A DNA stretch of 64,000 nt from Psammoneis japonica. Lineage: Eukaryota. The notes beneath the pieces are model-generated. The model was not told where the DNA came from. It saw only the letters and a list, made by a program, of their open reading frames with translations, and searched no databases. Location of the stretch: assembly GCA_008632985.1 (NCBI GenBank), contig QPGO01000016.1:406840-470839 (forward strand), in the 5' to 3' direction. Shown one piece after another: positions 1,002 through 50,675 of this stretch; within the stretch, counting starts at the first letter, position 1; the number at the start of each line of letters is the position of its first letter. Position numbers and translations under genes: made by a program.

Positions 1002-1189
1002 CGTCCCAGCCGAGACAAGTCGAATTCCTGCCTGTTGTCGCCGGGTCAGCTCTACTCCGGAAGCAAGGTAGCACATGATGGTCCCACACCGGTCGCGGAG
1101 CCGTAGGGAGGAGCCGCGAGAGTGCTTGACGACTGCATCCATGCTTCAAACGCGAACATGTCAAAATTACTTTTCGCTTTTCGCGGGCT

Positions 1190-3050
1190 GATCGGGAACC
1201 GCCTGCAAGGCCGCTTTCATTGCCCAAGCCCTCCCCCGACAACACACCCACCTCAAGGACAAACAAACCCAAAGCACACTCTTCCAATGATGTGCTGTCA
1301 CTTCGATCACTCACCTCCTCACCATGGATGTTTGCTTCCAGTCCTCCAGCAATCTGGACCCATTCCACTGGGCCTCCTCCCCTTTGCCAACGCCGTTGTT
1401 GGTGACTCTCTCTGCTTTGTGCCCCACCCGACTGCCACCTCTTTGCCTCCTCCGACAACAGCTCAACTGACAATCTTCCTTCCAGCCAATCTTGGCAGTG
1501 TTGGCTGCCAAGGCATTCCCACCTTGGCTGTCCCCTTTTCCCTTTTATCTCCCTCACCCATGCTCTCCGTGGTGTTGCCAAACAGGGCGTGTTCTCAATC
1601 TGCGACCAGAGCTTTGAAGCACCACCCAGCCAATCCTCTGTTCTTTCCTTCTTGGACTCATTCTCAACTCTGCCTTCATCTCTGCACCATCTTCTGCCTT
1701 CTCTTCCCAACACTCTTTCAACTTGACTCCCGCAGTTGCTCTGTGCTGTCCTCAACCACAACCTCTGAGGCTTGTCTCAATGTGCCCCTTTTTCAATGCC
1801 ACCCACCCTTCAGCTGGTCCTTCTCTCCCCTCACCAGCCTTTGCCTCCACTCTCTTTCTTGAGCCTTCCCAAGTTGCTGCCTCTCATCAACTCAGTTTGC
1901 TCTTCTCCTCTGCAACTCTGCAACTCTGCCTCCCTGCCATTCCTCCCAGTCCATGGAACCTCCGTTTCTCCTGTGGACACTCCCACCCTGACCCCTTTGG
2001 TGACCATGCCTTTTCACATGACTTCTCACTTTTGAGTTGCTTGTGCCCACGATGCTGCCTGTGCCACCATTGAGGCTCCACCCCCCTCCACCTTGAACCC
2101 ACTGTCCCATTTCCCAACAATCCTCTCAAACATCCTGCTGGTGCATGTGGGAGTTCAACTTGCACTCCCAGGTTTGCACCCCCCCCNNNNNNNNNNNNNN
2201 NNNNNNNNNNNNNNNNNNNNNNNNNNNNNNNNNNNNNNNNNNNNNNNNNNNNNNCGGCTCCTCCCTGTCCTGAACCTGGTTTGCACACCCCTCCCACGCA
2301 ACTTGTCAAGGCTCACCTCAGCAGCACCTGGGAAAGGCTTCTTGGGCACAGCACTCCTGTGAATGGCTCCTCCATCTTCTCTGCCATCAGTCAACCAAGC
2401 CTCTTCCTTTTCCTTTTGCCCTTGGCTGACCACCTTGGCAGCATGGGTTGCCACTTTCACACTTTCTTCTGTGGCCACTCCCATGGTGCTTTCTCTTCTG
2501 TCTCTCGCTGCTGCCTCCTGAGCTGCCTTGGACAAGCAACCCCTCCATTTTCCCCCTTTTCAACCTGTCAATTTTCCCTCCTCTTGCCAACAAACCTCCT
2601 TGCCCAAGCCACCACTGCCCAGAGGCAGCTCTCTCCTGACCATTTTGGCTCCTCCTGTCATGCCTCCACACTCCCCAGTCATGGGCCACTCCTCAGCTCC
2701 TGAGCCTCAAATTTGGTCTTGCCCTTTTGCCCACCTTTTTGCTGCCCACCAACCCTTTTTGCATCAACTCCCCACCACCTCTGCTCTCATGTCTGTCTGC
2801 ACCAGAGGTGCACAAATCGTCTGTTGTTGTTTGCACATGCGCATTTGCACACTCAGCGTGCGCACGAACAAGGGCAACAACAGACAATTTGTGCACCTCT
2901 GGTCTGCACCTCCAGCCCCACCTTCTTCTCAGCTTCTCCCTCTGCCCTCTGCCACACACCCTGCACCATCCTTTCCCCTGACTCTTCTGCACCTCAAGGG
3001 TGCAAATCCTCTTGTTTTTCCAATGTGCATCATTTGCAAATAAAAGCAAA
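1190..3050 (+). mobile_element. 5'-truncated, degenerate CRE-like non-LTR retrotransposon (RT C-terminus, CCHC finger, restriction-like endonuclease)
   Basis: Fragmented motifs in the expected order: LKDKQTQSTLF.CA..I.HLL (~1250-1320), IFLPANLGSVG (LPxxxGGxG, ~1473-1506), SCGHSHPDPFGDHAFS (CxCG..DxxGxH, ~1969-2016), KAHLSS...LLPLADHLGSMG (PF.V...GG.G, ~2310-2450). A-rich 3' end at ~3040. Confidence 0.65.
2187..2254. other. Assembly gap (68 N)
   Basis: Run of N following a poly-C tract. Confidence 1.
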
Positions 3051-4849
3051 AAACCTGCCACAATGTTTTGATGCAGTGTGGCTCAATTCTGGAAAAAATT
3101 CCTCCAGAGTGCACTCTGCACTGACTGTGTGTGCAACATGACAATGGCCAAAAAATGCTGTTTGTTGAACAGTGCAATGCAGGTGGGGAGGCTGGCATCT
3201 GTTCTCACAATGTTGTTTGTGACACAAAGGCCTGTTGTGTTGTGAAAACAGACACTGGCAGCCCCACTGCATTTTTGAGAATGAACAACATTTTGGCCAT
3301 TGTTGCATTGTTTGTAAGGTGCAGCAAGTTATGAAAACAAAGGAGCCTGACCCTTTGTGGACTTTCTGCATTTCAAAATCTCAGTTGATTTTCACAAAGG
3401 TGTGCAGCAGCCCATCCACATAAAATCAATTGCTGCCCAATCATGCTTTGTGGCTTCTCTGGCGCACCTTTTCCAATGATCAGGTTGCAATTCAAAAACC
3501 ATCACAATGGCAAAAATAACACTTGTCTCTGCAATGCTCATCTCAAAGACAATTGGCCTGACACCACCAACAGCCCCTGTCCTGCAACTGACATGCACAA
3601 CTCATGATGTTGTGGTTGTTGAAAAAGGTGGCATGTTGAGTTGCAGTTGTGCATCTTGAGTTGAGGAACACCGCCACACAAAAAAGAACATTGAGTTCTG
3701 CACACATGAATGACAAGCAGAAAGCCAGGGTTTGTGTGCTTGGAAGAGTGCTCTGGTCATCAGCAAGCCCGCTGGCTTTGAACATGCTAATTTCTGCTTG
3801 GAGTTCTTGTGCTCCTGCAGCAGCATGTTTTTGGTGTTTTGGCAGCATTTGCCTCTCTTTGTCTTTTGCCCACAGTGCTCTGTTTTGTCTCATGTTCTGC
3901 AGCAAGGTGGCAATGCTGTGTCATTTGCAGTTTGATTTTTTTTTAGTGAGACATGGATTGAGAGCTGTGGTTTGAGGGGGCAACCTGAGCCAGCACTGCC
4001 AATCATTTGGGAGTGCCACAGGCGCCACTTTCACATTGTTTGTGCACAACAGATCACCTTGACAAGACTCACATGCAACAGTTGTGGACTGCTGTCATGC
4101 ATTTGATTCATTTGGTGATGTGCCCCCTTGCAGCTGGAAATCAATCTTGCATCTCATCCTCGCTGTTGGTTGTTGGGGGCATGCTGGAGCTGTGTCAGCT
4201 GTGTTGATTGTGCAAGACAGCTCTTGACTTGGAGCTCACCAAAAACACTTGGAATGACTTTTGTGTGAACGGTTTTTGTGCACTTGTCTCACATCACAAC
4301 ACTGCAACAGAAGCAGCAATGCTGGAAAACCTGCTGTTTGTGTCAATTTCGCACTGTTGCTCTGCTTGGAACTCAACAACTGCTGGAGTGACTTTTGTGT
4401 GTCAACTTGGTTTGTTTTAACATGTTGGTTTGGTCTGGTCATGGGAAATCTTGTCTGGAGATTTGTGACAGAAGCAAGTGGAGGCTGGGTCACCAAACCA
4501 GTTAGTGGCCATTGCAGGCAACAAGTCAAAGGGTGCAAAGCCCTTCAAACCAACACTGTGAGCATTTTAAAAAGTGCAGCCACAATGTTCAGCAGTTCAG
4601 TGCAGTCACCATGGGCACAGACAAAAGGCAGTTTTGGGGAAAGCACAAAAATCCAGGGACAAAGCTGAGAACATGCTCGGCCATTTTTTCCTGTCAACTC
4701 TGCATTTCCTCAAGTTGAGAGTGCATTGATCCTTCCCACTCAAAGCTTGGATGCCAAGAAAGGTCTTTTTTTGTTGTTGCACTCATTTTTGCTCATGGAG
4801 AAGAACTTCTGTTCAGCTCCACTGTCCCCACACGCCACACAAGCCAAAG

Positions 4850-5540
4850 ATTGTGAACCTCCTCCTCCCTCCCACACACACAACAACAACACCAGCAATG
4901 TGCAAACAGTCAGAAGAAGTTGTGTGGCAGGCATGGTTGGGTCAGGGTGTGTGCAAGAGTCCGTGGCGGCTGGGTGGCAGAGAGCAAGAAAGGCAGGAGG
5001 TGTGGACAGATGGGCAAGAAGAAGAAGCAAAGTGGTGCTGCAAAGAAAAGACAGAGAGGCAGGTGCAGGCACATGGCTGCAAAGCTGAGGAGTTGAGCAG
5101 CCCTGGGCTGGGGGCAGAAGAGCAGTGGTTGGAGCCAAAGCACTCAGAAGAAAGCCATGGGGGGAAATGTTGGTTTGAGCAAGGAGGTCAATCAGCGGCG
5201 GGGGTCAGCCAAGGTGGTTTGTGGGAGAGGCGGAGCAGAAGAAGAAGAGTTGTTGTGTGAGTGACCAAAAAGAAAGGTGTGGAAATGGCGACCAATGCTG
5301 CCCAAGTGATCGAGGGCAAACGGGAGAAGAAATGAGCCAGCTTGGTTGACGGCATCAATGACATGGGGGGAACAGAGCCGTCAGTGGAGGGAGCATTCTT
5401 GCATCCCAGAGAAGCCTGTCCTGGGCACTGCTGAGGCAGATGAGCCTTTGCAAGAAGATTGGAAGGGGCAGGCAAACCAGGTGCAGGGTGGGGAGCAGGG
5501 ATGGCACAGGATGATGATCAGTGGCTCTCTGCGTGCAACG
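4850..5540 (-). mobile_element. Second CRE-like LINE 3' fragment, inverted relative to 1190-3050
   Basis: Minus strand reads LAKAHL.SSA...FLLPFALDHLGSIGRHFHTFLFGHSH, homologous to LVKAHLSS...LLPLADHLGSMGCHFHTFFCGHSH at 2300-2483. Confidence 0.7.
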
Positions 5541-5751
5541 TTTTGAATTTGAACTGACCGACATAGCAATTCTTAACGGTCCGACGCGGCACTATCGCGA
5601 ATAATTACAGAAATTTTTGTCCTCGTATCTGGAGAAGCAAATAATTCTTACGATGACCAAATTTTCATTTTGAAATTTTGACTTCAAATCTCCGCGAAGA
5701 CCCACAAAAACGCGACACAACGACGTACACACAAAATCAACAAAAAGCGTC

Positions 5752-6705
5752 ATGAGGTTGTCTGCATCAAGCGCTCTATTCATCGCAGTTAGCTTTCAAC
5801 TTGCCCATCATAACTTTGGTCAGGAATGCGAACTAAAAGGGTGCTGCGAGGGCGATTGCTGTTCCCCAGGTCTATACTGGGACTTTACCCAGAACTTATG
5901 CTTACCTGGTCAGTTTCTAGTCTGGAGACATGTAATAATTTTAATGATTACATTGGCTGATTCCTTGCAAAGCTTATCTCCTTCTTTTCTTGGTCGTACA
6001 GATCCATGGTCGCCAGGTTTTCAAGGCGATTATGGCCCAGACTTTGACTTTGGCTGCGTAAATCGCGTGTGCTGCGACAGGTATTGCTGCGGCGACGGCG
6101 CCATCTACGATGAGGATCTGGAGTGTTGTATCCCAGAAGATGGTGAAATCCTGACTGTTTCTCCCACAATGGCCCCAACTACAAATGGCACAAACGAAAC
6201 GCTCCCTCCTACTCCGAAAAAGCCCTTGAAGAAGATTCGGATCTCGAAATTCTGCATTGAGGGAAGTCCGAGATTTCTTGAAGCGTTTGGCGATGATCTC
6301 GAAGTGTATCTCCATCTCAATGCAGACCGAAGGTACTATCCAAAAATGGGACAAGATCCTGCTGTAGTAGATTTCAATGATTGCCTTGATGTGCCGCTGG
6401 CTGACTCCGGTGGTTTCGTTGACCACCCTAACTGGAAGTCAATTTTTGTCGGTGTTGAAGACGTCGACGATTTGTCTTCGAATGACGTTGGGTCTGCGAA
6501 TGCTCCTCCAGCCAAATGGTTCAATCCCATTTGCACGCCTTACGAAGTTAGAATCTATTTAACATTTACCCCTGAAAAGCAGGTCACCCAGTGCTACTCT
6601 GTCAACATTACAACTTCGGGATTCTCTGCGGGTTTCCAACGTTGCGAGAACTTCACGGCTCCAGCAGAAAGTTTGCTCTGGATAGTTGAAGTGCACCCGC
6701 GCTGA
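5752..6705 (+). CDS. Secreted Cys-rich protein with PT linker and C2-like C-terminal domain; probable intron 5909-6001
   Basis: Signal peptide MRLSASSALFIAVS, two CC..DCC modules, TVSPTMAPT linker, V.D.DD.S.ND.G resembling a C2 Ca-binding loop. 93-nt GTCAGT...TACAG intron that is in frame. Confidence 0.75.
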   Translation: MRLSASSALFIAVSFQLAHHNFGQECELKGCCEGDCCSPGLYWDFTQNLCLPGQFLVWRHVIILMITLADSLQSLSPSFLGRTDPWSPGFQGDYGPDFDFGCVNRVCCDRYCCGDGAIYDEDLECCIPEDGEILTVSPTMAPTTNGTNETLPPTPKKPLKKIRISKFCIEGSPRFLEAFGDDLEVYLHLNADRRYYPKMGQDPAVVDFNDCLDVPLADSGGFVDHPNWKSIFVGVEDVDDLSSNDVGSANAPPAKWFNPICTPYEVRIYLTFTPEKQVTQCYSVNITTSGFSAGFQRCENFTAPAESLLWIVEVHPR

Positions 6706-7325
6706 GGAACTTTCTTTTTTTCACCGTTGGTATGCTTTTGTCGAATGTGATTCAGTGTCCATAGCGCGCGGCACGGACAGGGTTCAAGCAGGGACAATCC
6801 GAGAAAGACAGGCGAAGCGAATCATTGCTAGGGCCTATGTCGTATTATTAATTTGCATTATAAGATATATGTTAAAAGAGTTGCTAGCAGCTATTCATAT
6901 TGAATTTTATACACTATCCTGTTGAGCATTCGACTTGAGTCGGCTAAAGAGGCACGTGTTAACCACTGAAAGGAATGAACACAAGTTGTGCGTTTCCTCG
7001 AAAAAGTATGACTAGCTAGAAAAGACGAACTGTGGTAAGTAAGTTGCCCATTCCGTGGGTGCCATACAGTACGATGATTCTTCTCACTCCAATTGTCTTG
7101 ATGAGTGGAGTAGCACGATCGTCTAAGATTGATACGTGGACCAACTGAGCCTAAATAATTAACGCGAAACTTTCTTCGAACTTCAATGCAACGTAGAAAC
7201 AGCCCACGCCACGTAGATTTCTACGTGTCGTGTACCACGGCGCCTCCATTGCAGACAGAAGAATCTCTTCTACTAGTTCGAGTGCTCTCACAATTTCTGA
7301 ATTGCTCGTCAGTTCACAGTCCATC

Positions 7326-12047: not shown

Positions 12048-12501
12048 GGTTATTAAGGTACCGTATCGGAGGAACTTGCATCAATCTTGATTGGCATCGC
12101 TCGCGACTTGCTTCGGGAATCCGGAATTTTCGCGTTGGATTTCGAATGCTGTACATGCTGCGTCGTGGAATCAAAAAGATTCCCGCGCCCCGGGCTCTAC
12201 TGTAGAGCTCTTAGCTCTAGCTAGCATTAACAGCTGCCACTAGCTAAGATAGAGTAGTCTGTCCGTCAGTTTTCTTGATTGATCGGCCATTGACCCCCGT
12301 TGATCAATGGTTTTGATGGCGGAAATGGCCTTCTCGGCTCGAGCTCGGCTTCTCACTGTAAATCGTTGGCTTTGCCGTTGAGAATGTCGAAGGTGTTTGC
12401 GTGGAATCGTTCACAGCCCCTGGCATGTTGGGGGCCCTGCGACTGAATGCACTGGGTGGTGTGTGCCGAGGAGTCTCCATCATCACAAAAAGAGCAAGAA
12501 A

Positions 12502-13958
12502 ATGGTGCGCCCGAAGAAAAAGGCGAGGCACCAGGGAAGGTTTGGTGCCCGAGCCCCTTCCGTGTGTGATGAAAATGGGCAAAGGCGTTTGCATGTTGGT
12601 CGTGAGTGTCAACTCCGCATGATTTCTGATGGCAATGATGTGTGGAGATGCCGAAATGACGGTGACAGCCGAAAGGGCACGTGGGACTCCATCGCACATC
12701 GTCATGGACGAGAAACAGGATTTTGAGTCAGGACTCAAGCCCAGAGCTTGAAGCACATGAGTCATCAAACCCTCCATTTCAAGAAACGAGGGTGTGTGTG
12801 AACTCCATCCAGCACAAGCCCAAGAAGTGCGAAGCTTGGGCAAGGACCCAGAGCAATTTCGAGTGCTTTTTGAAGGCGAAATTCCCGAATGATCCGCGCA
12901 CGCAATGTCTGAACGGATTGTTTCAGAAGACAGAGGAATGCCATGCAAATCCATTGGTTGTTCCAATGAGGCAGAAGCTGGAGCCACCCCGAGAAAGCCT
13001 CATTCTGTCTTGTGTGAAGTGCTTGCGAGACGGGGTTCCTGCTGGCAGGAGCATGAAGCACGGAACCATGTCGCTCGAGCTCAATTCATTGTCGTGCACA
13101 TTGATTGAGTTCTCACATTCGAAGGGTCTGAATCGCACAGCTGAGATTAAAAAGCTGTTGGAATCATGTGAAGAGGCAGATGATGTTTCTCGTGCCAAAG
13201 CCTTTGATCCCGAGATTTTTCTTCCCATGGCTTGGGATCAGCTCTGGAGATGCACACCAGGCCTTTCCTGCATGAGAAAGGTTCGAATTTGGTCGAGGCT
13301 GCTTGGTCAGCTGTCTTTCATTGGACGTGCATCAGATGTTTCTGAGCACTGTCCCTCAACATCCAAGACAACTCTGCCTCCTACGTTGTTGACTGCGAAT
13401 TGGCTGAAGGATGGGACGCCTCGGCATTTGGATGTTTGCTTTGACAATTGGAAGGGCAGGAAACCAACAAACATTGGAAATCCTCACCACACCTGCATTT
13501 GTCATAATCCAAAGAACTTGAAATGTGACCCTGTGATGTGGACACTCAAGGAATGGCGTTGTCGTAGTGAAGACAAAACAAAAAAGGCAAAGGCTCCAGC
13601 ATTTTTTACCGTTTCAACTCAGACTTGGAACAAGCAGCTCAGGGAATGCATTTGTGGCCCACTGGGGCTGCCACACACGTCCCACAGCATTCGACGCTCG
13701 GGCGCCCAGTGGGCTTCTTGTTGTGGGGCCGACATTGCCGTGGTTCAAAACGTTGGTCGCTGGGAGTGCCTTGCGGAGTTGTTGAAGTACGTTGCCCAGG
13801 GAAACCAACGGAATCGTCTTGCAAGCGAAGATGACCAAGACCCTGTTTTCGAGTTTTGGCCGTTCTTTCCCAAAACGTCCGTGACAGCCTTGGCCACCAC
13901 TGCAGAACAAGCCAACACCATGCGGTCAAGGGCGCCAACGGCAAGTCTCAATTGGCAA
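12502..13958 (+). pseudogene. Tyrosine recombinase (phage-integrase fold), mutated
   Basis: Catalytic set R (FIGRASD), H-x-x-R (HSIRR), W (VGRW), Y (LLKYV, 13788-13790). The likely N-terminus MVRPKKKAR (12502) is in another frame with TGA at 12724, so the gene is probably disrupted. Confidence 0.8.
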
Positions 13959-14044
13959 AAAAACAGCAGCACCACTTTCATTGCACTTCATGTTGTCGTG
14001 TTTTTGTGTTTTGAAACAATGCCAGTCGATTTGCTTCGCCATTG

Positions 14045-14905
14045 TCAGCATTGTTTTTCGATGTGGATGATCTGAGTCTCACACAGAACACAAAGCTGTT
14101 TTGTGCGTGTGCTGCTGGCCGCCTTTCTGAGCAGTTGCTCAATTGTCCAATGAGCCTTGAGACGCTGCGCAAGCTTCGAGTCCCCGCCGAGATTGTGCTT
14201 CTTCAATTTGGCAGACGACCACAGGCGGACTGGAGAACACACTTGACATTTTGTTTCTTCCACCACCTTTTCTTCACATGCACGGACTGCTGCAGTGGTG
14301 TGTGTTTCCTCTTCTGTTTTAAAAAATGGCTTTGGTGCAAAACACTTGTTCTCACCACCTCTTGGTAACGTTGATGGAGGCAACCGGTCGCCGAGTGGCA
14401 CTGCTGAATCTTGTGCTTGTTCTTGCCGGGGTGGAGCCAGCAGGCAAGACGGATCCACAACGTGGTTCACCTGCACCTGACGAAACCCACGACGAATCAT
14501 TTCGTCTCTCATGGCTTCTCTTGAAACAGAAAACAATTCGTCAGTGAATGGATTTGCAAAAAAGAGTGCATCTTTGAAAAGAGCGACTTGCTCTCATGCA
14601 ATCGGCCATGTAGACTGATTGGTCACTCCGTCCCCAGCAACGGCGCCATTCTCGTTGATTCCACATTTCATCACATGGCACGCGGCATCCCTTTCAAAGG
14701 AGTCCGGGTTGAGCTCCCCAAATTCCTTGTCCCAATCCCTTGTTGCTGATGTCACTTCAAACAACTGTTCAACAGTTTGTGACGGTGGATGGGGTTGAAT
14801 CGAAGCCATGTCGCCATTGTGGTCTCCGGCGTCGGCATCATCGGCCATGTTGTCAGCCACATGGAGGGCTTGATTCACATCTGACAAGTCATAAGTCAGT
14901 GACAC
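14045..14905 (-). pseudogene. Second, convergent ORF of the YR element (unknown function), split by one in-frame TGA
   Basis: ORFs 14594-14905 and 14045-14536 are in the same frame, separated by a single TGA (likely CGA->TGA) plus 19 sense codons. Confidence 0.5.
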
Positions 14906-15822
14906 GATGCATGAAAATGCAACTCGTCATCATCGTTCTTTGTGAAATCCATCACGCGGAGCTCGGAGGGAGAGGTGAGGTTTCCCGCGTTGATCGAGGG
15001 TTCGAGTCTCGTTGATCACCGCAGACGCTCTGCAGGCGCCTGCACTGGAGACTTCGTTGATCGAGGGTCTCGATCAATGATCGACCCGTAGAAAGCCACC
15101 TCTAAATCAACAGAGCAGCGCGCAGGGGGGGCGAGCAGTCTCTACTAGCTAGCTAGAGTAGAGGGCTTCTACTGCACAGGTGACCGGATAGAAAACATCT
15201 TCTCCGTCCCCCCCTCATCTTGGCGGGATTGATCAGCCAGTGTAGCACCGGCACTACGGTGCGACATACTTCTAGAACAATGGTGCTTGACGCAGTGGGA
15301 GGAGTCAGTCGACCGCTGCTAACTCCGACTCCGAAACCCTGCTCACTACTCCGACCAATTCACGGCGTTAGGGCGTACGCGCGTCTTTTCTTTCTTCAAA
15401 GCCACACGACTCCATGAGAACGCACTGCTGCTGACTGGCGTGTACGAAATGCGACGTACAATAAAACAAAACATGTCTGTTATTCGTATGTACTGTATGA
15501 CCGAGAACGATGCTGCGAGGAAAAGAAAAGATCCAACCGAAGAGTAGCATGGTGATCGTGCATTGTTGTGGGCTAACCCCAAGAACGAGAATCAATGCAT
15601 CGCACATTGAACATCAACGACACGAACCAAATTGACAACTTGATATCTCTAAAATAGCTTTTACAAAAGCACCATCTCTTGATTACTGAATCACAAGCCA
15701 AGCCTTATACTCCTGCATGCCACAACTGAAGGAACAAATATAAAGAGTAGCTTGCTCTCGCCTTCATTGCAGAATAGGAGACTGTCCCGCCACAAAGAGC
15801 CGCGTTGAATCGCCTTGACAAT

Positions 15823-21436: not shown

Positions 21437-22182
21437 TCATCCTAGAACCAAGCTGTTATTGTCGTTGTTGACCTTTTCAGTATGGTACTTGTTGGACAGT
21501 TCATCATAATCTTTGATTAATCGTGCTACCGTTTCCTGGAATTCTTTCTTTTCGGGAACACAGTCGTCGAGCTCTTCAATCAAGTCCATGATGCAAGCCG
21601 AAGCAAAATACTTGTTTTGTTTCCTGTATGTATTTACGCCCCATAACTCATGCATTCTTTTTTAAAGATAAAGAAAAAGCAGGAAAAGGATAAGACCAAG
21701 CTCAGACAGAAAAGAAGGATACAAAACGCCTTCAAAAGTGCTCACGTGTTGATATCATGAGGAATTCCTTGTGCTGAAGTGATGCTATACGGAAAGAAGT
21801 AGTAGATCTTATTGAAGCCCGACCACAAAATACTGCTGACACACATGCAACACGGTTCATGTGTCGCTAAGAAGACAGATGATTGCGCAGCAGCACCTCG
21901 TTCCGGTGCTGGAGTAATCTTACTCCATTCATGGATGCACTTGACCTCGCCATGAAAAAGCGGACACTCCGTCTCGTCATTGGTGGCCGCAAGAACTGTT
22001 TTCAGATTCGAGTCGAGAATTGCTGCACCAAATACCTTGTTTCCTGCCGCAACTCCCTTCTCAGTGATTGGCAAAACTTCCTTTTCAATCACATCTAGTA
22101 GAAGACGTATTTGGTCAGTGGTCGCTTTCAATTCGGGCTGCTGCTTTGACTCATCGATCACGACGCCTTCCGTTGTACTCAT
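21437..22182 (-). CDS. Zn-dependent nucleoside/nucleobase deaminase (CDA/guanine-deaminase-like fold); intron 21657-21745
   Basis: GNKVFGAAIL, PLFHGEVKC (HxE), THEPCCMC (PCxxC), GIPHDINT|MHELW. Confidence 0.85.
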
Positions 22183-22510
22183 CTTTTCGATTTCTCTTGA
22201 GGTTGTTGTTTTCCTCTCGTGAGCAGCGTTTTTTCCCTCAATGGTCGTCCGATTTCGACCCAGACTGACCAGATGCTTCAAATTCTGTTGACACGAAACT
22301 TCTGCAAAGGTCAACGGAAGCCGGCGCGGATGAGGATACGGGACCTCAAAATTTGCCGCCAACGAAAATCTCCGGGTTCCGATCACGAAACTTCCCTCCG
22401 ACCTCGCGATCGTTTCTCTCCATTGTGAGACATGCACCTTGATTTTGATTGGAGCATACCCCGGAATCATCGTTGTTCCATTACCGAAGTTGTGGCAGCC
22501 AAGATAGTAG

Positions 22511-28788: not shown

Positions 28789-29289
28789 GGTCACCGACTG
28801 CTTCTTCAACGTCGCAGGTTCCTGCGGTGACAAAGCTGCGACTTTGTTCTTCCGTCGTTTGCAACAACGTTAGAATTCGCATTTGTATCGCTGTAGGCCG
28901 TTTTGTACCAAGCTTCCGTAGAAAGTTCTGTCTAATTGTTCGTTGAAATTTCATTGACACGCAAAAAATTCAATCGCGACTTTTTGTTTGTTCCGCCGAT
29001 TTTTACTTAAACAAATGACTTTTACTTAACAGAATCAAAAATGGTACATTCTTAAGTCATATAGTCATAATGTCCTAATCGGACTCTTTATTGGATCGTG
29101 GGTAATCGTGGTTTTAAGGGAGTCATTTCCAAAAAACAGCGATTAAGTATTTTTATCATTTTTTATAGAAAACGCGAACGCCGAAGAATTCATCGTTCTA
29201 AGTAAATTGATGGCATCCACAACATTCAATAAATGGTTCTTGCACTTCGGGATAAAGAAAGCCAAAAAATTCTGAAATTGCAGCGCATC

Positions 29290-32200
29290 ATGCTCGGAAA
29301 AAGCCTTCCACGTCACGCGGCATCAAGCGTTGAAGAATCAATGACGTCATCAACAACGATGCTTTGACTTTTTTGTTTGAATGTGGCAGCCATGAAATCA
29401 CATTGACTTTTGTTGCTTGGGTCAATGCATGCGCCAACATTGTTTTAACCAACAGCTTTCTCTTCATACAGAACAGGATCTCTGCCTGGCAACCGGGGTC
29501 ATGTGTGCTGTCTCTTGAAGTTTTTTTTCTCTCTCTGTCTTGCGCTGACAACATCCAGGGGCTGCTTGGCTGCTTGCTCTCTGTTTGTCCTTCTGTTTGT
29601 TGTGTTGATTGTGGACCTGTTTGCTGGCACAATGAATGTGACCTGCCGAAAATGTACCCTCAATGCTTGCACAAGAACCCTTGTGTGTGGCTGGTGGGAA
29701 GCTGCAATTTGGCTGCATTGCTTTTCGCAAAGAGCTGGAGCATTTTTGCAAATGTGGTGGTGCGCGCAGACCCACCTGTGAACTTGACACTTGAAAGCAC
29801 AGTTGGAAGTTTTTGAAGACATTGTCTGTGCAAACTTATTCTTAAATTTTGGTGCTGCTTTGCCAACTCTGACTGCTTCACAAGCGCACCACACTCCCTG
29901 TGCTCAAGAGTGTGTTTTGCCAAAAAAAAAAAGTGGCCGGCATCTCTCGTCATTGTCAACATGTTTTCTTGCAAAAGATCAATTGACAAGAAACAAAATT
30001 TTTACACCTGTGATTGCCAATCTCCACAGGTGTCACAATTTCTTTCAAAAATCAGAAATCAGCCGATGATGTGCTGATCTCTTGGCTGCAAAATCTGATC
30101 AATGTTTTGACACTGGCTCACAATTTTCAGCTGCAAATCTGGCACTGTCCAAAGTCATCATTTGAGTTGACAGTCAGTTTTTTTCTGGTGGTCATGGATT
30201 TGCAATGTTTTGTTTTGCAGCCTGGCATCTTTCTCAGGAGGTTGGCTCATTTGCTTGAAAGTTTCTCAGCTTGGCCGCACATTGCATGTTTTGTTTTGGC
30301 ATTTCTGCTGCTGTCACTTGTCTCTTTGTTGCACACCAGGCACCACACAACCAAGCTGCCAACCCATTGTTTGCATGACAACAGCACACCCCTCCTGTCA
30401 CAACCCACTGTGTCCTTGCTGCGTGTCTGACAACAATCATGAAAAAGACTCTCCTTTCAAAACAATGAACCAACCCCTTTTTTGACAGGGAGTGCAACTG
30501 CAAACTTGAATCCTTTCCTTCTGTGCAAGGTCAATTTGCACTCCAGAGCCCAGTTCACAACAATGTCAAGCAGCCCTCACTGCAGCCATGCTGTCATTTG
30601 TTCCCTGTCATCATTCGTGTGCCCTGTTGTTGTCAACCACAAATGCACGTCAACTGATTTGACCTCATCTTTGCATTGCAATTTGACAAATTCTGACATT
30701 TGCCCAGACCACCGCAGCATGAGTCAATCTCCCATGTTTTGTTCAACGTCACTTTGAAGTTGTCAATTGACAACAAATGTGCCACCACAAACATGTTTGG
30801 GGCACCAAGTCATTGGGGCCAGCATGGCAGTGATTTGATTTGGTGTTTCACTTTCTTGCAGGGCTTGCACATTGCACTCTGTTTTAGCTGTGGCTGCAAG
30901 CCTCCAAAAAATGCATTGTGCACTGCAACCCCAATGAAGCTCAACTTCACATTTCTGGCTTGCGCAACCCAACCAATCTTCCTGTGAGATCCATTCTTGC
31001 TTGCACTTTAGAGCAGGATGAAATGGAAGATGGCTCGCCCATTCATTGCAGTTCTTCATTGCTTCTAACTGAGAGAAGCTTGTTTCAAAAAAAAATGCTG
31101 CTGCAAATTTCTCCAGTCTCTTCAAGCCATTTTGAAACTGCAAAACAACTGTGTGTGTCTCTGGCATTCCCAGTGCATTGCTTTTTGAAGTTTCACTCAC
31201 CCCACAGCTGCCCCCAGCAACCAAACCTTTGAATGAGTCTCTCTGGAGTTTGGAAACTCAAGTCTGCTGATGTTGGGGACAAGGGTTGCATGGGGCCACA
31301 ACCCACAAGATCAACTTTGCAATGCTCAACTGCAGTTCTCAAACAAGTCTTTTGCCTGGGGCCCATCAAAAACCCCCAACCAATGCCCTGGGCACACCCT
31401 CAGCTTGTTGCTCCTTTTGTCAGGTTCTTGGCTGGCACAGTCATGGGGGCCCTTGCACTCTGGAGTGTGGAAACTCAAGTTTGCTGCTGCTGCTGTTGGG
31501 GACAATGTGACATGGGGCCACCACACCCCAAGATCAACCTTGCAATGCTCAACCACAGTTCTTTAAATCTCACCTGGCATCCACCAGAGACCACTGATGC
31601 CCTCAGCATGTGGTTGTCAGGCAGGTTGGAAGGTGCCATCATGAAACCCTTCTGCTCTGGAGTTTTGGGAAAGTCAAGTCCATCACTGTTGTGGACAAGG
31701 TCACATGGGGTCACAATGCTGCAAGATCAACTTTGCAATGCCCAGCCACAGTTCTTGAAGTGTCGCCCGGGGTCCACCAGTTGAAGCCAATGCCCTCAGC
31801 TCTTGCAGTTGTCAGGTTGGTTGGTGCTGTCATGGGATGGCTGCACTCTGGAGTTTGGAAAGCCAAGTTGGCTGTTGTTGGGGACAAGGTGACATGGGGG
31901 GACTCAAGTGTCTGCTGCCATTAGAGACAAGGTGACATGGGTTCACAATGACACAAGATCAACCTTGCAGTGCCCAACCACAGTTCTTGAAGTCTCACCT
32001 GGGGTCTGTCAGACACCACCAATGTCTTCAGCTTGCAGTTGTCAAGTCAGTTGGTGTCGTCAGGCATGGGATGGTTGCACTCTGGATTTGGGAAAGTCAA
32101 GACTGCTGCTGTCAGGCACAAGGCAACATGAGGCCACAACACCCCAAGTTCAACCTTGCAACACTCAACCACAGCTCACAAAGTCTCACCTGCAGGGTTT

Positions 32201-33880
32201 CCCAGACACCACCAGTGTCCTCAGCTGGCAATTGTTGCATTGGCTGTCACAGCTCTGGGGCCCTTGCAGCCCTTGTTGCACTCTCTGCCTGGAGTTTGAA
32301 ACTTGAGTCTGCTGCTGTTGGGGACAAGGTAACATGGCACCACAACACCACAAGGACAACCTCTTTCAAAGCTCAACCACAGTTCTAAAAGTCCAGGTTG
32401 GAGCCCACCAGATGCTGGCAACACCCTCAGCTTGCAGTTGCAAGGTTGGCAGTTGGCACCACCATGGGATGGCAGCACTCTGGAGTTGGGAAAGTCAAGT
32501 CTGCTGCTGTTGGGGGCAACATGTGGCATGGGGTTGCAACACAACAAGATCAACATTTTAATGCCCAGCCACAGTTCTTAAAGTCACACTTGGGGCCCAC
32601 ACCAGACACCACCAGTGCCTTCAGCTTGCAGCTGTGGTCAGGTTGGTTGGTGCCACCATCTTGGGGTCCTTTCACTCTGGTGTTTGGAAGTTCAAGCACA
32701 AATGTGAAATTTTGTTTTTCAACAAGAAGCAGCCAATTGAGGCCACAAAAACTGAGACATCAACCTTCTTCAAAAACAGGCACAATGCATCTGATCAAAA
32801 AATGTTCAACACCCAGGCTGCTGAACAAATAAAAACTCACAAGCATCCTGCATTGGCTGGCAATGAAGACCAATGAAATGGTTCACTCAAGTTGACTCAA
32901 ACAATCCAAAACTCAGAAAACAAATGCAACAAAAAGCTTTTTTTAAACAACCACTTGCAAAATGACATTCAGGCAATGATCGCCAGGCCAACTGGCTCAC
33001 AGCTCCATGGCAAAAAGGTGCACTCCCACCACACAAAACAACACAAAATCACAGGATGCACCCAAGCAGCACACAAACAATGACAATGTTGCAGGAATGC
33101 ACCAGCAAAACCCAGGACCCTGCATGTGCCAACAAAGAAAAGCCATGGGAAAGGTGAGAGGTCAGAAGTGCAGCACAGCAGCAGGCAGCTCACAGCAAAC
33201 AACACACAAACTGACACTTTCCTTTTGCATTTTCTTCATTTCTTGAAACTCAGACAAGTTGAAAAAGCAGCCAAGGACAAAAAATAAATTGCTGCAGCAG
33301 TGCTGCACACAGGCAAGCAGAAACAGAGCAGTGCTGTGCCATGCTTGCCAAAGAAAATGTGCCAAACTGACAACTTCTCTGCTGTCTCCTGCCAGGGATT
33401 GCAGTCATGTCTCACAATGAAAGGCTCTGTCACAACTGGCTCTTTTTGAAACACAAGTGATGTTTCATCCAAAACAAATTTCTGCAGTGTGGCTGTTGCT
33501 GGAAAATCAGTCACTGCCAAGAGCTGGCATTGTTGACACAGAGGGAGGGGGGGGTGGTGGCAGCAAGCATGTGATGGGATTTGCAACTTGCTTGATGAGG
33601 GCAGGCTGGCGGCGCCATTGCCCAAAGTGTTCCCTGATTCTTTGGGACAGCCACCAAGGAACAAACAATCATCTGGGGTAGAAAGCTGTCAGCTGATGTG
33701 GGGAAGCATGAAGCAGCCACCACCCCACACCGGGAGAGCAAGGGGGGGGCTTGCCATGGAGGCGCACAGTGTGTGTGGTGCACAGCGGCACCGCCTGTGC
33801 TGGCTCTCCTCAACAAGGGGCAGAGAAGCCCAATGCCAAAAACAAGAATGAATGTCATTGGCGCAAGAGAACCCTCAGAA
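29290..33880. other. TpA/CpG-depleted island 3 (degenerate sequence, element type not identified)
   Basis: TA and CG are rare, and many Cys/His-rich spurious ORFs occur. Lies between the divergent HSF and Rieske genes. Confidence 0.85.
31240..32700. repeat. Degenerate tandem array, ~190-235-bp unit, ~7-8 copies
   Basis: Anchor ctctggagtttggaaa.tcaagtctgctg recurs at ~31241, 31456, 31654, 31844, 32078, 32287, 32476 and 32672, followed by ggggacaaggtgacatgg and aagatcaac.ttgcaatgc.caaccacagttct. Confidence 0.85.
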
Positions 33881-34149
33881 GAAATTACACACGAGAAAAA
33901 GAACATTTGTCGGTTCTCTTGAAAGAAACGAGGAGAAAGAAAGGACCCCTGCCTCGTCCCCCGACCTCCCCAAAGCAAGGTGCGCTAGAGAGAAGAAACG
34001 CGCGACATCGGACAGCACAATGGCATATGCTGAGCAAGTGCTGGGTGCGACGCCTGTGAAACGCCGCAAAGTCCAATTCCTCGTTGTAATCGACATTGTG
34101 TGTCGAAAAACAGTTTTCAGTTTTCATAGAAAGCACAATCTGCCTAACC

Positions 34150-36668
34150 ATGACATCGAAAAGCCGTCGCATCGGGCCTTCAGAAAAAATTGTGTTTTTG
34201 ATGGTGGTTGTACTCTCCAGAGCAACTGGTTTTCTCACGCCAGTCACAACAAGGACACGTGTATTCCCATCGATTCACCGAGTCTCTCGATGCAGCGTCA
34301 CCATGCCGTCATATCAGGGCTCTGAGGCGGAACATACCTCGGGCCACCGATTCTCGGTTGAGCTGTTTTCTACGAATCAGCAGCAGCAGTCGCAGATGAA
34401 TGCTTCAACAAGCCCACGGTCGAGCACAAAGACTACGAAAGAAGCCAAGACATTGCCGGCATCCCAAGTTCTCCGTATCATGGCTATTGCGCTATGTTTT
34501 ACTGCAATTCAAAGTGTTTCTGAAGGGGCCTTGTCGACAGCATCAGTCCGGCTTTCTACGGCGCTCATTACAATGCTCGACTTCGCACCGGCAGCCAGCA
34601 AACAGTGGAAAGATACATCACTAGCCATTCAGGCCGAGCCATCCGTGGCGAGAGAGTTTTATAATCTAGTGAGAATGAAGACTCTAGGAGAACTTCTGGG
34701 TCTTGGCTTCATGATTGCGTCTGCAGATTTGGCACTTGTCGGCGCAGCTGTGGTGCTGTCTTCACACTTGGGCTTTTGGCTTGCAGGCGCAGGCAAGGCC
34801 CGAGTCAATGATAAAGGAGTATCAGTGCCAATGCCACCTGGACTTGTCAGTTCCATCTTTCTGGCTGATTTGAGCTTGTTGGTTGCCGTTTTGACTGGTC
34901 GATTCGCATCGACGGCACGATTGCGTTCGGGAGGAGCATACACATATTCTGCTTATGTCACCTTGCTCTGTGCGGAAAAGATCAAGAAGAGCTTCAAACC
35001 CAAACAGCAAGTGGAGAAGAAAGAAGAAGACGTGGCGATGAAAACTAACTCGTCCAAAGTACCTGAAATGGTTGCTCCGCAAGAAAAAGAGGTCCCGAAA
35101 CCGGCGGCAGAGACGTGGGACTTTGATTGGCGTCGTCAATGGTACCCTCTTGCATTTTCTAAAGTCACCGATAAGTCAATACCTCATCGTTTGGAACTCT
35201 TTGGAGAGCACTTGGTTTTGTGGCATAACGGTACGGGGTGGGCTGCCTTGGCTGACGCATGTCCTCACCGGCTTGCACCTCTGTCGGAGGGTCGTATCGA
35301 TGAAGCGGGTCAAATTGAATGCCCCTATCATGGGTGGACATTCACCAACCAAGGTGCTTGTACGGCAATCCCTCAAGCTTCCAATGGTACAAATGCCTTG
35401 GGAGCATGTAGTGCTCGAGCTTATCAAGTCGTTGAGAAACAAGGAATGATATGGGTATTTGGCGTTGTCGGAGCCAAGCCACAAGATGCGGACGAGTCCC
35501 TAATACCGATCTGCTCGGCCCTGGAGGACGATCGATTTGTGTGGATCGATTTTTCACGGGACTTGCCTTACGGTGCGGATACATTGTTGGAAAATGTCCT
35601 GGATTCCTCTCACGGTGAGTGTTGCACAGCCCCCGATGTAGTTGCTGTCGGAAGTACGTTTTGTTTTTGGTTGTATTTCTAATCAACTTTTGCGTTCGCT
35701 TCAAAGTACCTTTTACTCACCACAAGACGATAAGTAGAAGAGAAGCGGCTAAACCCTTACCTCTTAAATTAACAACTCCCATATCTCCCAAGGGCTTTAA
35801 AGGAGAGATGGAGATGGATGTACCGACTGGAAAGACCGGTGAACAGAACGCAAAACAAGGTCTTGTCACTTATCGGACAACAGGCTATGAAGCTCCAACC
35901 TACATGCACAACAGAATCCAAAGCGCCAATAAAAAGGATATGGACTTTGAAAAAGGTAGTGAAACTTGGACAGTTGTCTATGCAACACCAACAGGTCCAG
36001 GCCGATCGCGGCTATTGGCAAGATTTCCATTCCGCTTCCCACCACCCAAGCGACCTCTCTTGCTCCCTTTTCGATTGAATCTTCCCGCTCTTATATTCAA
36101 GTACTTGCCGGACTTTATCAATCACATGGGGCAAATGAAGGTGACCGATGACGACAACATATTCTTGCCAATTCAGGAACGCTACACAAGAGAAGTTGGC
36201 GGTTGGAAACGATACAAAATGCCGACAGAGGCAGATACTTTTGTTAGAGGGTTTCGACGGTGGTACTCTAAGGCTGGACCGCCGCCCTATTCAACATTTA
36301 TGCAAGATGCAATTTACAAGAGGGAACCTACGATAGAGGAGCTTCTGGATCGTAGGTCACAACATACAAAGCACTGTTCAAGCTGCCAAGGTGCACTGAA
36401 GAATGCCAAGCGACTTCGAGACGCTTCAAGGGCAGGTCTTATTGCGAGCGCTGCCGTGTCTCCTACGCTGATTGTCCAGAAAATGTACAAAACACTGGTC
36501 GGCATAACAATCGGTGCAGGGTTGCTGGCTCTAATCCGCAAAATGGCGTACCTTGTAGAAGAATCACTTACGACTGGTTTGGGGGATTATCCACCACCGA
36601 GAAATCGACCCGATATGAAGGGACGAAATCGCGAGCTTCGTACAGTAGAGGAAGGTAGAAAGTTCTGA
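34150..36668 (+). CDS. Plastid Rieske oxygenase (PaO/Tic55/PTC52-like) with an extra N-terminal hydrophobic domain; intron 35615-35706
   Basis: DACPHRLAPLSEGRI...ECPYHGW (Rieske), ENVLDSSH|VPFTHH (mononuclear Fe), HTKHCSSC, C-terminal TM helices, ATG-F presequence. Confidence 0.9.
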
Positions 36669-41900: not shown

Positions 41901-42539
41901 CTTGACCATGGTGGATGAGGATGACGATATGCTTTAGCGTAACATAAGATCTTTGCACTACGTACTTTACCGGCATTCGACCGTCGTGAAAGGTCACGTC
42001 ACCCAGCAAATCCATAATGTTGTTTCTGCTTTCTGCTGGAAGTTAAGTTTGTGTGAAAGATGTGATCATCATCTCAATTGGGTCGCGTTTTCCCTTTGTA
42101 CGACTGATGTGGGAGGGAGGAAACCGTCAAAACGGCAGGGCCCGGTGAGCAAATTCATTCTTCCTCTCAAGCTGTTGCTGACATGCGGCAGCTAACAACG
42201 AATAGATGATTGCACACAATTGCAGAAAAGGTGCCATGCATCGCCCTCCAAACCCAACAAATCTCCACCGGTGCACCAAACTGGCTCTGGTGGCTCTCTG
42301 AAAACAACACAGCCGTCCAGCAAGTGTCAATCCTTCTGCCACAGGGCCAGCCAGTCACATCCCAGGAACCACAAATCATGCTCTTTGTGCCACTTAGCCA
42401 AGGTTTCAAGTGCATGTGCAAAACTCATGTGATTGCTCATCACACAAAGACATGGATCGGCGATGACTGAACTCACAGCTGGTGGTGGCACACAGTCTGT
42501 TGACAAGAAAGCACAGTGGGAGCGACAGCCGTTTCAAAG

Positions 42540-43620
42540 ATTGGGGCTCCAAGAATGTAGTGAGTGAGAGGTTGGATTCTCACTCCCTTGCTCATCACCA
42601 ATGCAAGCCTTCCAATGCAACAGCCATGCTGTTTTCACTCTGAAAAGGGGCGGAGTCACGCCATGCTCATCGCCAGTGGCACAAACAAAATCCAATCCAA
42701 AGTCATGAAGCTGAGCCTTGAGTGCAGGCATTTTGGACAGTTGCAAGCCTGCTTTCCTCCATCACAGTCTTTCAGCTCTGAAGCTAAAGGTGATCCCTCC
42801 TCCTCTGTGATTTGGATGGAGGCCATTTCTGCTTTGCATTGAAAAAAGCTTTGCAGCCACGCTTCTCATCCTGCACAATGAGAGCCTTTCCTCCAGCCTG
42901 AGTGCAACCCGCCTTGACATTGATGTTGAGCCACTCAAAAAGAAACTTTGCAGCAGTTGTCACCCTCACACAAGCAGGTGTCAATTTTGTCATCTGCCAG
43001 AATGCACACTTTCTTCATTGGCTTGGAGCCTGGGATGATCTCATGTGGGCACACAGAGCATCATCTAAAATGCATGTTGTGATGCGACTGACATCAAGCT
43101 TGTCTCCATCATTGCATCAACCATTGCTGCTGGATTCTCTTGATGCACAGTGTGGGTTTTCAATGGAAAGTGCTGCCACAGTGTCAAGCATGTGTGCCAT
43201 GCATGGTTTGCACTGCATCTGCTCATGCACCCAAGAAGCTGTGGTGCATCAGCGACACTTGTTTCTTTTGGCAGTGGCGGAGATTTGAGTGCCATCACAT
43301 GGTTCTACAACTGCAAAGATGGAGTTTGTTGGAAGACAGTGACTGAGTGGAACCTTCTGAGTCAGCATTTCCCATTAGAGTGATTTGGTCAAGCAACAGA
43401 AATTCCAACTTGGTTGCACAAGAAGACAATTCTGGACTGCACTCTCAGAATGATTGTCTGTGCAAATTTGTTTCCATGAGTCTCTGCAGTCTTGACCTGA
43501 GGAGGGCATTTTGTTCCAGGATTTGCACACTCTGGATGCAGACCCAACCTCCCAAGCATCCAGCCAGTGTCTGATGAGAGAAGTCTCGTGAAATCATCCA
43601 TTTCAAAGTTTGTTTGGTGG
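42540..43620 (-). pseudogene. F-box-like gene relic, paralog A (heavily mutated)
   Basis: 42250-43620 aligns with 48465-49860. Shared KAxxTQAGGKALIVQ and LSKMPAxKxQ peptides. Confidence 0.65.
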
Positions 43621-43699
43621 CACCCTGAATCCACAGCCAGCACACTGTGGCAACCATGCAATCAGATTTTGGCTCAGACAGATCAGTGCAGATTTTCAA

Positions 43700-48350: not shown

Positions 48351-48844
48351 ACAGATGAGCAAAACCAAAGTCTTTCTTGAGCTGGAAAGTGACTCATGCA
48401 CCCAAGTGCAGAAAAGGGCAGTCCCTGCTCAAAGCATGAGTGCTGCGTGCATCACCGTCCACATGTTCCCAACAAATCTCCACCGTTTCACCAAACTGGC
48501 TCTTTGAAAGCAACACAGCCAACAAGGTGTGAACCCTTCTGCCACAGGGCAGCAGTCACATCCCACAATGACATCTTGCTCTTTGTGCCACTCATCCAAG
48601 GTGATTGCATCATTGGTTGATTTAGTGACAGGTGCACGTGCGAAACTGGCACACATGTGTGTTCACATGCGAGGTGCAAACAAGGGAAGGCACAGGCAAG
48701 AAATGAAAGAAAGGGATCAGTGACTAAACCAACAGCTGCTGGCATAGTCTGTCAACACAGATCAATGACGATGACGATCTTTTCAATGATTGGAAGCTCC
48801 GAGAATGTTCTGAATGCGAGGTTGGACACTACTTGCTTCCTCGC

Positions 48845-49900: not shown

Positions 49901-50054
49901 ATGCAATGATGCTTCGTTCGTTTGATGATTCTCGTTGTCCCTTTTTCTGAAAAGGCAGAAAGCCAAGGCAGAAATCTTTGAGAAGGACTCCATGAGCATT
50001 CGACACTGATTATGTGTTGCTGCCAAGAACTGCTGCAATGGTTTGATTTGCCTC

Positions 50055-50675
50055 ATTTGCCTTCTTGTTGCTGTTTTTTAAATGGAAGATTGAGGGAGCC
50101 TGTGCAGAGCGGAAGGGAACAGCAGAGGGAGGCACGGAGGCAGCTGTAGAGACGGCAGAGTAGAAGGGTCGAAGGACGCAAGACGAAGGGCGTTTTGAGG
50201 AAGGCATGGGTGAGGAGGGGGCAGGGAGAGAGGAAGTGAATCGGAGGATGTGCATGGAAAGGTGAAGAACGACGTTGCAGCCAAGAGTTTGGGTGGCCCA
50301 CTGGGATGGGGTGGCTGTGCGGCAGGTGCTCCCAAAGTGATCGGCGGACAGGCGACGCCATGCGAAGTCAGCAGAGGGAAGGATTGCAGACGGAGACGAT
50401 AAAGCGTAGAGGAAGGCGGAGTAGGAGGCATCGGAGTGACGAAAGTCAGAGGAAGAGGACCAGGGTGGCTTGGGCTGAGAGCAGACGGAGGAGGATGTAG
50501 AACCAAAGAGCAAGCGGTGGGCAAAGTAGCCGAGACCACCAAGGTGATCTACAGTGAAGGGGAGCAGGAAGATGCCATTGTTGTTAAGCGAAGAAACAAC
50601 AAGGGATCCATCGGTAGAGGAAGTAGAGGGGCCAAGAAACTTCAATCTCGCGCTCGAGTGGTGTGCCTTTCCTCT
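50055..50675 (-). mobile_element. Third CRE-like LINE 3' fragment, largely unmutated
   Basis: KAHHSSARLKFLG...IFLLPFTVDHLGGLGYFAHRLLFG...RRLSADHFGSTC, homologous to copies 1 and 2 (RQLSPDHFGSSC at ~2620-2660). A-rich 3' end at ~50075. Confidence 0.7.

Follow-up and report, generated by a model that had tools for sequence, protein, structure and literature searches.

In a stretch of 64,000 bases (68 of them N) from contig QPGO01000016.1 of the diatom Psammoneis japonica (positions 406,840 to 470,839 of the forward strand; hereafter the window), five islands have been stripped of most of their TA dinucleotides, and the TAs that remain lie preferentially beside runs of T or A. This context bias of the surviving TAs is far beyond chance. 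We favor, with moderate confidence, the explanation that repeat-like domains underwent hypermutation of TpA to TpG or CpA, graded by the length of the adjoining T/A run, and that the survivors are its slow-reacting tail.

TA erasure in five islands

Islands were called with a two-state hidden Markov model on the T-followed-by-A step, which returned five TA-poor islands with a summed length of 21,051 bases and 73 TAs remaining. All five are sharply bounded and sit among ordinary genes; a mobile-element-like protein was found in only one of them and is weakly supported. Island 1 (1171-5555, with an N gap at 2187-2254) is erased for both TA and CG, retaining 11 TAs and 47 CGs against 454 TGs and 455 CAs. 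Island 2 (12258-15081), which contains a tyrosine-recombinase-like open reading frame (ORF), has 11 TAs left but has kept 139 CGs, so that loss of TA and loss of CpG are separable. Island 3 (29270-33885) is again TA- and CG-erased, and 16 of its 19 remaining TAs are TTA or TAA. Island 4 (42207-50078) consists of a core (42207-48400; 16 TAs left, 14 of them TTA/TAA) and a less completely erased right zone (48401-50078; 14 TAs, nine of them TTA/TAA), in which CpG is near normal. Island 5 (54304-55657) is small and has two TAs left.

Ancestral TA numbers were estimated by multiplying the island x-YR-y sites (TA, TG, CA and CG) by the share of TA among outside sites with the identical flank pair. 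About 931 ancestral TAs are expected from these flank-matched sites and 73 are left, a reduction of approximately 13-fold. Expressed as dinucleotide odds (rho), TA fell to 0.05 inside the islands from 0.62 outside, while TG rose to 1.79 (1.11 outside) and CA to 1.69 (1.12 outside). CG stood at 0.27 versus 0.96, and island GC content was 48-51% versus 47.1%. Essentially no change was seen for AA (1.27 versus 1.17), TT (1.23 versus 1.17) or AT (0.79 versus 0.88), which bears out the remark in the first-pass annotation of this DNA that AA and TT runs are still abundant. Both the TpG and the CpA outcome were present in every island, and TG/CA counts were balanced: 454/455, 275/240, 491/559, 858/927 and 132/165 for islands 1 to 5. 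Thus TA was lost and TG and CA were gained, with AA, TT and AT untouched.

The same change can be read in a coding relic. The recombinase-like ORF of island 2 (12681-14075, plus strand, 464 aa) shares 50% identity with the unmutated metagenome protein P0001. Across the 20 aligned tyrosine positions of P0001, the island ORF carries Cys at nine, His at three, Tyr at one and another residue at seven. The Tyr to Cys/His substitutions at 12 of the 20 positions are the coding counterpart of TAY turning into TGY or CAY and, judging from this alignment, they reflect mutation rather than native composition. Grouping the tyrosine codons by their preceding base was uninformative, as only three had a T flank (two now Cys, one His). 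The last tyrosine codon of the ORF, TAC at 13788-13790 (plus strand), occupies the C-terminal LLKY position in a column that is invariant in three aligned proteins, all three of which keep the HSxRR...GRW...LLKY pattern; it is presumed to be the catalytic position. Assignment as a recombinase is weak: Pfam Phage_integrase matched the relative P0001 with E 0.096 and did not match the island ORF itself, and a PDB profile search gave Tre recombinase at E 0.62. Metagenome relatives of the protein were found at 11 loci with 24-49% identity, none of them TA-depleted (lowest whole-locus rho 0.46), so they provide no independent replicate of the erasure.

Context of the surviving TAs

The first-pass annotation had reported that survivors in the island cores are nearly all TTA or TAA. 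All 19 coordinates that it cited carry TA as described, the TA given as 3516 starting at 3517, and the ten TAs that it named for 3040-4570 (3041, 3315, 3330, 3421, 3517, 3788, 3944, 4418, 4503 and 4568, all TTA or TAA) are every TA in that stretch of island 1. The bias holds for the islands as a whole, where 58 of 73 survivors were TTA/TAA, versus 746 of 1866 TAs outside (Fisher odds ratio 5.8, p = 1.8e-11). Counting NTAN tetramers inside versus outside the islands gave a ten-class chi-square of 65.4 (p = 1.2e-10). Base composition, which the annotation had itself named as the competing account, does not yield these frequencies, since island composition gives 44.1% TTA/TAA (binomial p = 8e-10).

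We defined island cores by taking 300 bases off each island edge and omitting the weak right zone of island 4; among core survivors the TTA/TAA share was 44 of 51 (p = 3e-9). Taken singly, island 1 (11/11, p = 1.4e-4), island 3 (16/19, p = 2e-3) and island 4 (23/30, p = 7e-4) each showed the bias, and it was not significant in island 2 (7/11), in the right zone of island 4 (9/14) or in island 5 (1/2).

Survival normalized to flanks was 0.30 for TTAA, 0.22 for CTAA/TTAG, 0.12 for GTAA/TTAC and 0.12 for ATAA/TTAT, followed by 0.047 for CTAC/GTAG, 0.038 for CTAG, 0.036 for GTAC, 0.010 for ATAG/CTAT, 0.008 for ATAC/GTAT and 0 for ATAT. To call TTA and TAA spared, as had been done, is therefore too strong: about 85% of the sites with one such flank were lost (about 15% remain), and survival of TTAA was about 30%. 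In first-order terms, the erasure rate of TTA/TAA is about half of that of V-TA-B. The most fully erased contexts were ATA/TAT, a feature absent from the annotation, with two survivors versus 13 for S-TA-S (S, C or G); the corresponding counts outside were 599 versus 521 (p = 0.003). The proposed target V-TA-B is thus right in that the flanks matter, but it describes a preference and does not define the target, because VTTAAB sites, with a single T before and a single A after the TA, left no survivors where about 21 were expected.

Run length of the adjoining tract

The proposal that A-tracts impede erasure turned out to describe the main effect. When sites were classed by the longest T run before, or A run after, the TA, survival climbed from 0.026 at run 0 (15 survivors, 579 expected) to 0.075 at run 1 (18 survivors, 239 expected) and 0.37 at run 2 or more (40 survivors, 109 expected). 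Sites with a run of at least 2 made up 40 of the 73 survivors (55%) versus 728 of 4975 island YR sites (14.6%). The effect was significant singly in islands 1 and 3, in the core of island 4 and in its right zone. For runs 0, 1 and at least 2, a non-ORF baseline gave survival of 0.021, 0.057 and 0.30, and an ORF-only baseline 0.032, 0.096 and 0.44.

All 12 TTAA survivors had a run of at least 2 on one side or both, and the absence of VTTAAB survivors had a probability of 0.002 under pooled TTAA survival. The second base out was T in 52% of survivor half-sites, versus 27% at outside TAs and 26% at island TG/CA sites, and T-flanked half-sites had a second T in 46 of 70 cases among survivors versus 776 of 2704 among island YR sites (p = 3e-10). 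Poisson half-site models were compared by the Akaike information criterion (AIC). The best one distinguished T, S and A (AIC -190.5; hazards 0.43 for T, 1.55 for C/G and 2.16 for A), followed by T versus other (-187.3). The YTAR model (pyrimidine versus purine) fitted the window more poorly than T versus other (-171.1). The A-tract effect is the core of the pattern, of which the tetramer rule is a shadow; run length fits the window data better than the simpler readings that TTAA or YTAR is spared, and corrects both.

An excess was also seen among the products. In islands 1, 3, 4 and 5, TTTG/CAAA was observed 431 times versus 266 expected, and TTCA/TGAA 251 times versus 223. As the TTTG/CAAA gain goes beyond the supply of lost TTTA, CpG decay beside T-runs, or native composition, would have to be asymmetric too. 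The excess was not seen in the CpG-retaining island 2.

The first-pass annotation had also proposed that an adjacent (methyl)CpG protects TA. Three of the four survivors of the recombinase-like island that are not TTA/TAA do abut a CpG; protection by (methyl)CpG, however, is not established. In island 2, TA made up 3 of 40 non-CG YR sites beside a CpG versus 8 of 486 elsewhere (p = 0.044, post hoc), and the comparison gave p = 0.11 when only C/G-flanked controls were used. Outside the islands TA is likewise commoner beside CG (odds ratio 1.44). The claim that TACG/CGTA survive stands on three sites, one of which is the last tyrosine codon of the ORF at 13788.

Alternative explanations of the context bias

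Additive half-site hazards were 2.12 for A, 1.53 for C/G, 1.08 for T, 0.16 for TT and -0.72 for TTT. The negative hazard of TTT implies that a one-sided tract also protects the other base pair. Were a tract to block one strand only, survival could not exceed the square root of S/S survival (0.206), whatever the mix of exposure among islands. Together, the S/TT and S/TTT classes held 22 survivors versus at most 12.2 under this one-strand model (p = 0.007), which is suggestive of tract protection acting at the level of the duplex. The competing idea is a strand-local nearest-neighbor rule, in which a single-strand (ssDNA or RNA-like) adenine deaminase finds T[A]A poor and T[A]T good and treats the strands independently, so that a TTA/TAA site would lose one of its two erasure routes. 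We regard it as unlikely, although the deviance test (p = 0.09) does not reject an additive half-site model of three flank classes and the edited-base estimates lean its way. These estimates were obtained as a mass balance of the product excess, by tetramer, trimer and T-run. Pooled, the share edited at the A followed by y was 0.21 for A, 0.40 for G, 0.57 for C and 0.69 for T; the mean rate by +1 base ran from T (2.84) through C (1.81) and G (1.16) down to A (0.39), and the -2 base was without effect. The asymmetry appeared separately in islands 1, 3 and 5, but it was absent from island 2 and from island 4, the largest of the five (edited-A shares of 0.55 and 0.56), and several shares fell below 0 or above 1, which indicates that native composition leaks into the estimate. 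The strand-local rule also sits badly with the run-length data: a single T/A flank protects little (0.075), VTTAAB sites did not survive, most of the effect comes from positions 2 and 3 of the run, and tract-flanked sites outlive the limit of a one-strand block. Three sets of repeats were considered for polarizing the changes. The direct repeats of island 4 (42237-43614 and 48448-49859) are 67% identical by BLAST, with 1032 of 1481 positions identical in a MAFFT alignment and many transversions and indels, and are too old. The duplicates at 5-1001 and 5944-6946 lie outside the islands and have few TA-site differences, and for the diverged array of approximately 205-bp repeats within island 3 (31241-32696) Tandem Repeats Finder reported none and a seven-copy alignment had 58% column identity.

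Two further explanations do without a context-dependent eraser. The remaining TAs could be new, formed from TG or CA by ordinary C-to-T or G-to-A mutation after erasure, their context then reflecting influx. With 4557 island TG/CA sites with defined flanks some such events must occur, and the CpG-depleted islands are old. Nevertheless, context-blind influx predicts the TTA/TAA-type share of those sites, 2118 of 4557 or 46.5%, versus the 79% seen among survivors (p = 1.1e-8), and 14.6% with a run of at least 2 versus the 55% seen. The bias is moreover stronger in the cores (44/51) than in the less mutated right zone (9/14), and an equilibrium would still require context-dependent removal, all of which makes influx a very improbable source of the pattern. 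Least probable of all is that source elements were rich in TnTA/TAAn, or that selection kept TAs that were needed. In its favor, four of the five islands have no assigned origin, and the last tyrosine codon of the ORF does lie at the presumed catalytic position; selection, however, accounts for one site at most. As for composition, flank abundance is already covered by normalizing to identically flanked YR sites of the islands, the swap from an ORF to a non-ORF baseline leaves a 14-fold gradient, and the pattern is repeated in at least three unrelated islands.

Proposed mechanism and its implications

Most likely, then, the islands were shaped by a TpA mutator that targets domains, acts on the duplex and is impeded by A-tracts beside its site; beyond the mutational footprint itself, this is inferred. 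DNA-level hypermutation would turn TpA into TpG or CpA (A:T to G:C) over whole repeat-like domains and leave neighboring genes alone. Its rate would be highest at ATA/TAT and drop steeply with a longer T run before, or A run after, the TA; near saturation, the TAs left would nearly all mark the 5' end of an A-tract (TnTA/TAAn, n of at least 2). The agent would work on duplex DNA and need to open or deform the flexible TpA step, and a stiff A-tract with a narrow groove beside that step would hinder it at both base pairs. The chemistry may be adenine deamination yielding inosine, or the mirror-image reaction on thymine.

Several points weigh against this interpretation. The test for two-sided protection falls to p = 0.085 under a conservative bound, and the additive run-length model fits poorly (deviance p = 0.008). 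Estimates of the edited base pair conflict, with a pooled share of 0.21 for T[A]A, shares of about 0.55 in islands 2 and 4, and several values outside 0-1. The expected ancestral TA numbers rest on a TA share borrowed from the genic DNA of the window. Taken by itself, the recombinase-like island shows no significant TTA/TAA bias (7/11). Only one of the five islands has any mobile-element protein, and a Pfam scan of 32 of the 59 stop-free frames gave no family at its curated cut-off. Finally, the data show an end state, in which neither an enzyme or lesion nor a mutation in progress was observed.

More tentatively, the agent may be a diatom genome-defense activity that rewrites A:T to G:C at TpA in duplex mobile or foreign DNA. 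If a tract protects both base pairs, such an enzyme would recognize its site by DNA shape or through the minor groove and not by a single-strand motif. It would be a natural double-stranded-DNA A-to-G editor.

The context rule, which hints at a duplex-acting agent, has uses of its own. It provides a fingerprint for candidate enzymes in vitro, with ATAT expected to be fast and TTTTA/TAAAA slow; the true enzyme should match the observed order across ATAT, GTAC, VTTAAB and TTTTAAAA contexts. In genome scans, it also helps to distinguish true hypermutation from an ordinary deficit of TA.

Other features of the islands and the window

By the codon table, conversion of TA to TG or CA makes no stop (TAA becomes TGA or CAA; TAG becomes TGG or CAG), so TA-free DNA retains or gains long open frames. 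The islands hold 59 stop-free frames of at least 110 aa in 21 kb, and an open ORF in a TA-erased island is no sign of function. In a Pfam scan of 32 of these 59 frames, no mobile-element domain and no match at the curated cut-off was found. The best was an F-box-like match at 49469-50077 (minus strand; E 4.7e-5, slightly below the Pfam cut-off) in the right zone of island 4, extending into the ORF at 50010-50783; this region at the island edge may be a host gene partly hit by spreading. A scan of seven frames from island 1 gave nothing at the curated cut-off or at E 0.01, the sole match being Acyl_transf_1 (E 0.043).

Close to both ends of island 1 lies an inverted repeat (2258-2483 and 5256-5498, 68% identity), and there is a 103-base palindrome at 2801-2903; both may be remnants of terminal inverted repeats. 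The direct duplicates that flank this island (5-1001 and 5944-6946) are 91% identical, each with an ORF of about 250-320 aa. Neither duplicate is depleted of TA, and their few TA/TG/CA differences lie near their 3' ends. An ORF family without a Pfam match is represented by three diverged paralogs (52364-53263, 56069-56970 and 60748-61331; 64-74% DNA identity), two of which flank island 5.

Window genes with long open frames encode a phytoene synthase, a Rieske/pheophorbide-a-oxygenase (PaO) pair, an HSF-type factor, a sulfatase, Pex2/12 and an NmrA-like protein. The stretch is present in two sequencing runs of a single sample, which is probably where the assembly comes from. Between the Rieske and PaO ORFs, a contig of one run (X2) joins 35613 to 35706, omitting 92 bases (35614-35705). 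Intron splicing is the apparent cause of the skip, which makes it probable that a single gene spans the two ORFs and that X2 derives from RNA.

A CDA-fold zinc deaminase ORF lies at 21742-22470 on the minus strand, with HGE and PCCMC motifs and 591 relatives at E of 0.001 or less. Its best named relatives are in Seminavis, Nitzschia, Pseudo-nitzschia, Cylindrotheca and Thalassiosira (62-67% identity); the family is conserved across diatoms, and a JGI automatic label reads TadA. No TadA/ADAT2 match was found in NCBIfam or PDB, where matches to ADAT3, guanine deaminase and a Nitrosomonas deaminase were weak. The ORF ends where its relatives go on, and an intron probably follows. This deaminase is an orphan that merely shares the window, and nothing ties it to the TpA erasure.

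Comparison with known systems

The change to be matched is A:T to G:C at TpA only, as seen in the odds of TA (0.05), TG (1.79) and CA (1.69), the flat AA, TT and AT, and the 12 of 20 tyrosines turned into Cys or His. Repeat-induced point mutation (RIP) in ascomycete fungi converts CpA to TpA, lowers GC, creates stop codons and inactivates repeated or mobile DNA. RIP and the island process share domain-wide, dinucleotide-directed transition mutagenesis of repeated or mobile-looking DNA with neighboring genes unaffected. They differ in outcome: RIP makes TA and lowers GC, whereas the islands lose TA, have a GC content of 48-51% versus 47.1%, and could not have gained stops. C-to-T change at CpA is ruled out by the near absence of TA and the higher GC in the islands.

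In somatic hypermutation, DNA polymerase eta targets A:T pairs in the WA motif, where T or A precedes the mutated A. A 5' T is common to both cases, but WA includes AA, while the transitions here are at TA only. The first-pass annotation had judged the target to be narrower than WA; we concur, because AA is not depleted, and WA mutagenesis is ruled out by odds inside versus outside of 1.27 versus 1.17 for AA (1.23 versus 1.17 for TT).

Among adenosine deaminases, TadA has UACG as its natural tRNA-Arg context. TACG/CGTA is not preferentially erased here and, if anything, is over-represented among the survivors. For the A-to-I mRNA editing linked to ADAT2/ADAT3 in Fusarium graminearum, the sections of the report drawn on here give U at -1 in 85.7% of sites, slight U enrichment at -2, a +1 order of A ~ G > U > C, a preference for UAG and UAA, and an RNA hairpin loop as substrate (PMC4817773). 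The need for T/U at -1 is a likeness to the islands, which were erased at TpA only. By the same account, however, Fusarium prefers UAA/UAG, whereas TAA/TTA is the most protected and ATA/TAT the most erased context here, and its editing is of RNA, whereas both DNA strands are affected in the islands (PMC4817773).

ADAR, which edits double-stranded RNA, favors U at -1 and tolerates A, C and G in the portions of two reports considered (PMC5663115, PMC4817773), with preferences of U > A > C > G at -1 and G > C ~ A > U at +1 (PMC4817773). The A-to-G outcome and the favored U 5' of the edited A are shared with the islands (PMC5663115, PMC4817773). Set against these partial accounts, the -1 base here is T only, AA being untouched, and the most depleted classes are ATAT, ATAC/GTAT and ATAG/CTAT, not the G-flanked ones in general. 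The balance of TG and CA, together with an element in one of the five islands that is recombinase-like and not of retro type, speaks against an RNA intermediate.

DddA, a double-stranded-DNA cytosine deaminase, is described in excerpts of one article as reading 5'-TC from the minor groove (PMC10442228). The parallel is one of functional analogy only: a deaminase of duplex DNA recognizes a dinucleotide through the minor groove, and A-tract protection could arise likewise. On the same excerpts, DddA differs in being a bacterial toxin that acts on cytosine; no homolog of it came up in this analysis, which included no search aimed at one.

The one true counterpart of the island process, as far as the parts of the preprint considered here go, is the TpA hypermutation of Bigelowiella natans (Mettrop et al., bioRxiv 10.64898/2026.01.13.699255). 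Those parts describe A-to-G and T-to-C changes solely at TpA in the DNA of giant viruses and virophages integrated into the genome, TA-poor genome windows rich in CA plus TG that are tied to transposon and viral domains, and an ADAT2-like enzyme proposed as the agent on account of the strong demand for U/T 5' of the edited A. Of 231 de novo mutations, 210 of the 211 in the NCLDV region and all 20 in the virophage region were A-to-G or T-to-C at TpA. The dinucleotide and the direction of change are the same, on these passages, as in P. japonica; the restriction to foreign-looking DNA may also be shared. The cases differ in that B. natans, a chlorarachniophyte, shows live mutations in accumulation lines, whereas the diatom shows the end state only; and TA is roughly halved there, by the same passages, versus down approximately 13-fold in the islands here, usually with CpG loss. 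The words 'context', 'trinucleotide', 'tetranucleotide' and 'flanking' do not occur in the main text of the preprint, and its passages considered here give no flank preference. A search of the full-text literature for TpA hypermutation in diatoms, judged on titles and the starts of abstracts, gave nothing relevant, and only the Bigelowiella preprint fitted.

So far, TpA-directed hypermutation is on record from this single preprint, for a single alga. Its occurrence at near-saturation in a diatom would extend it to a second major lineage and to ecologically dominant algae. If the P. japonica islands do reflect a genome-defense activity, it would either be of common origin with the Bigelowiella system or have evolved separately in a second eukaryotic supergroup.

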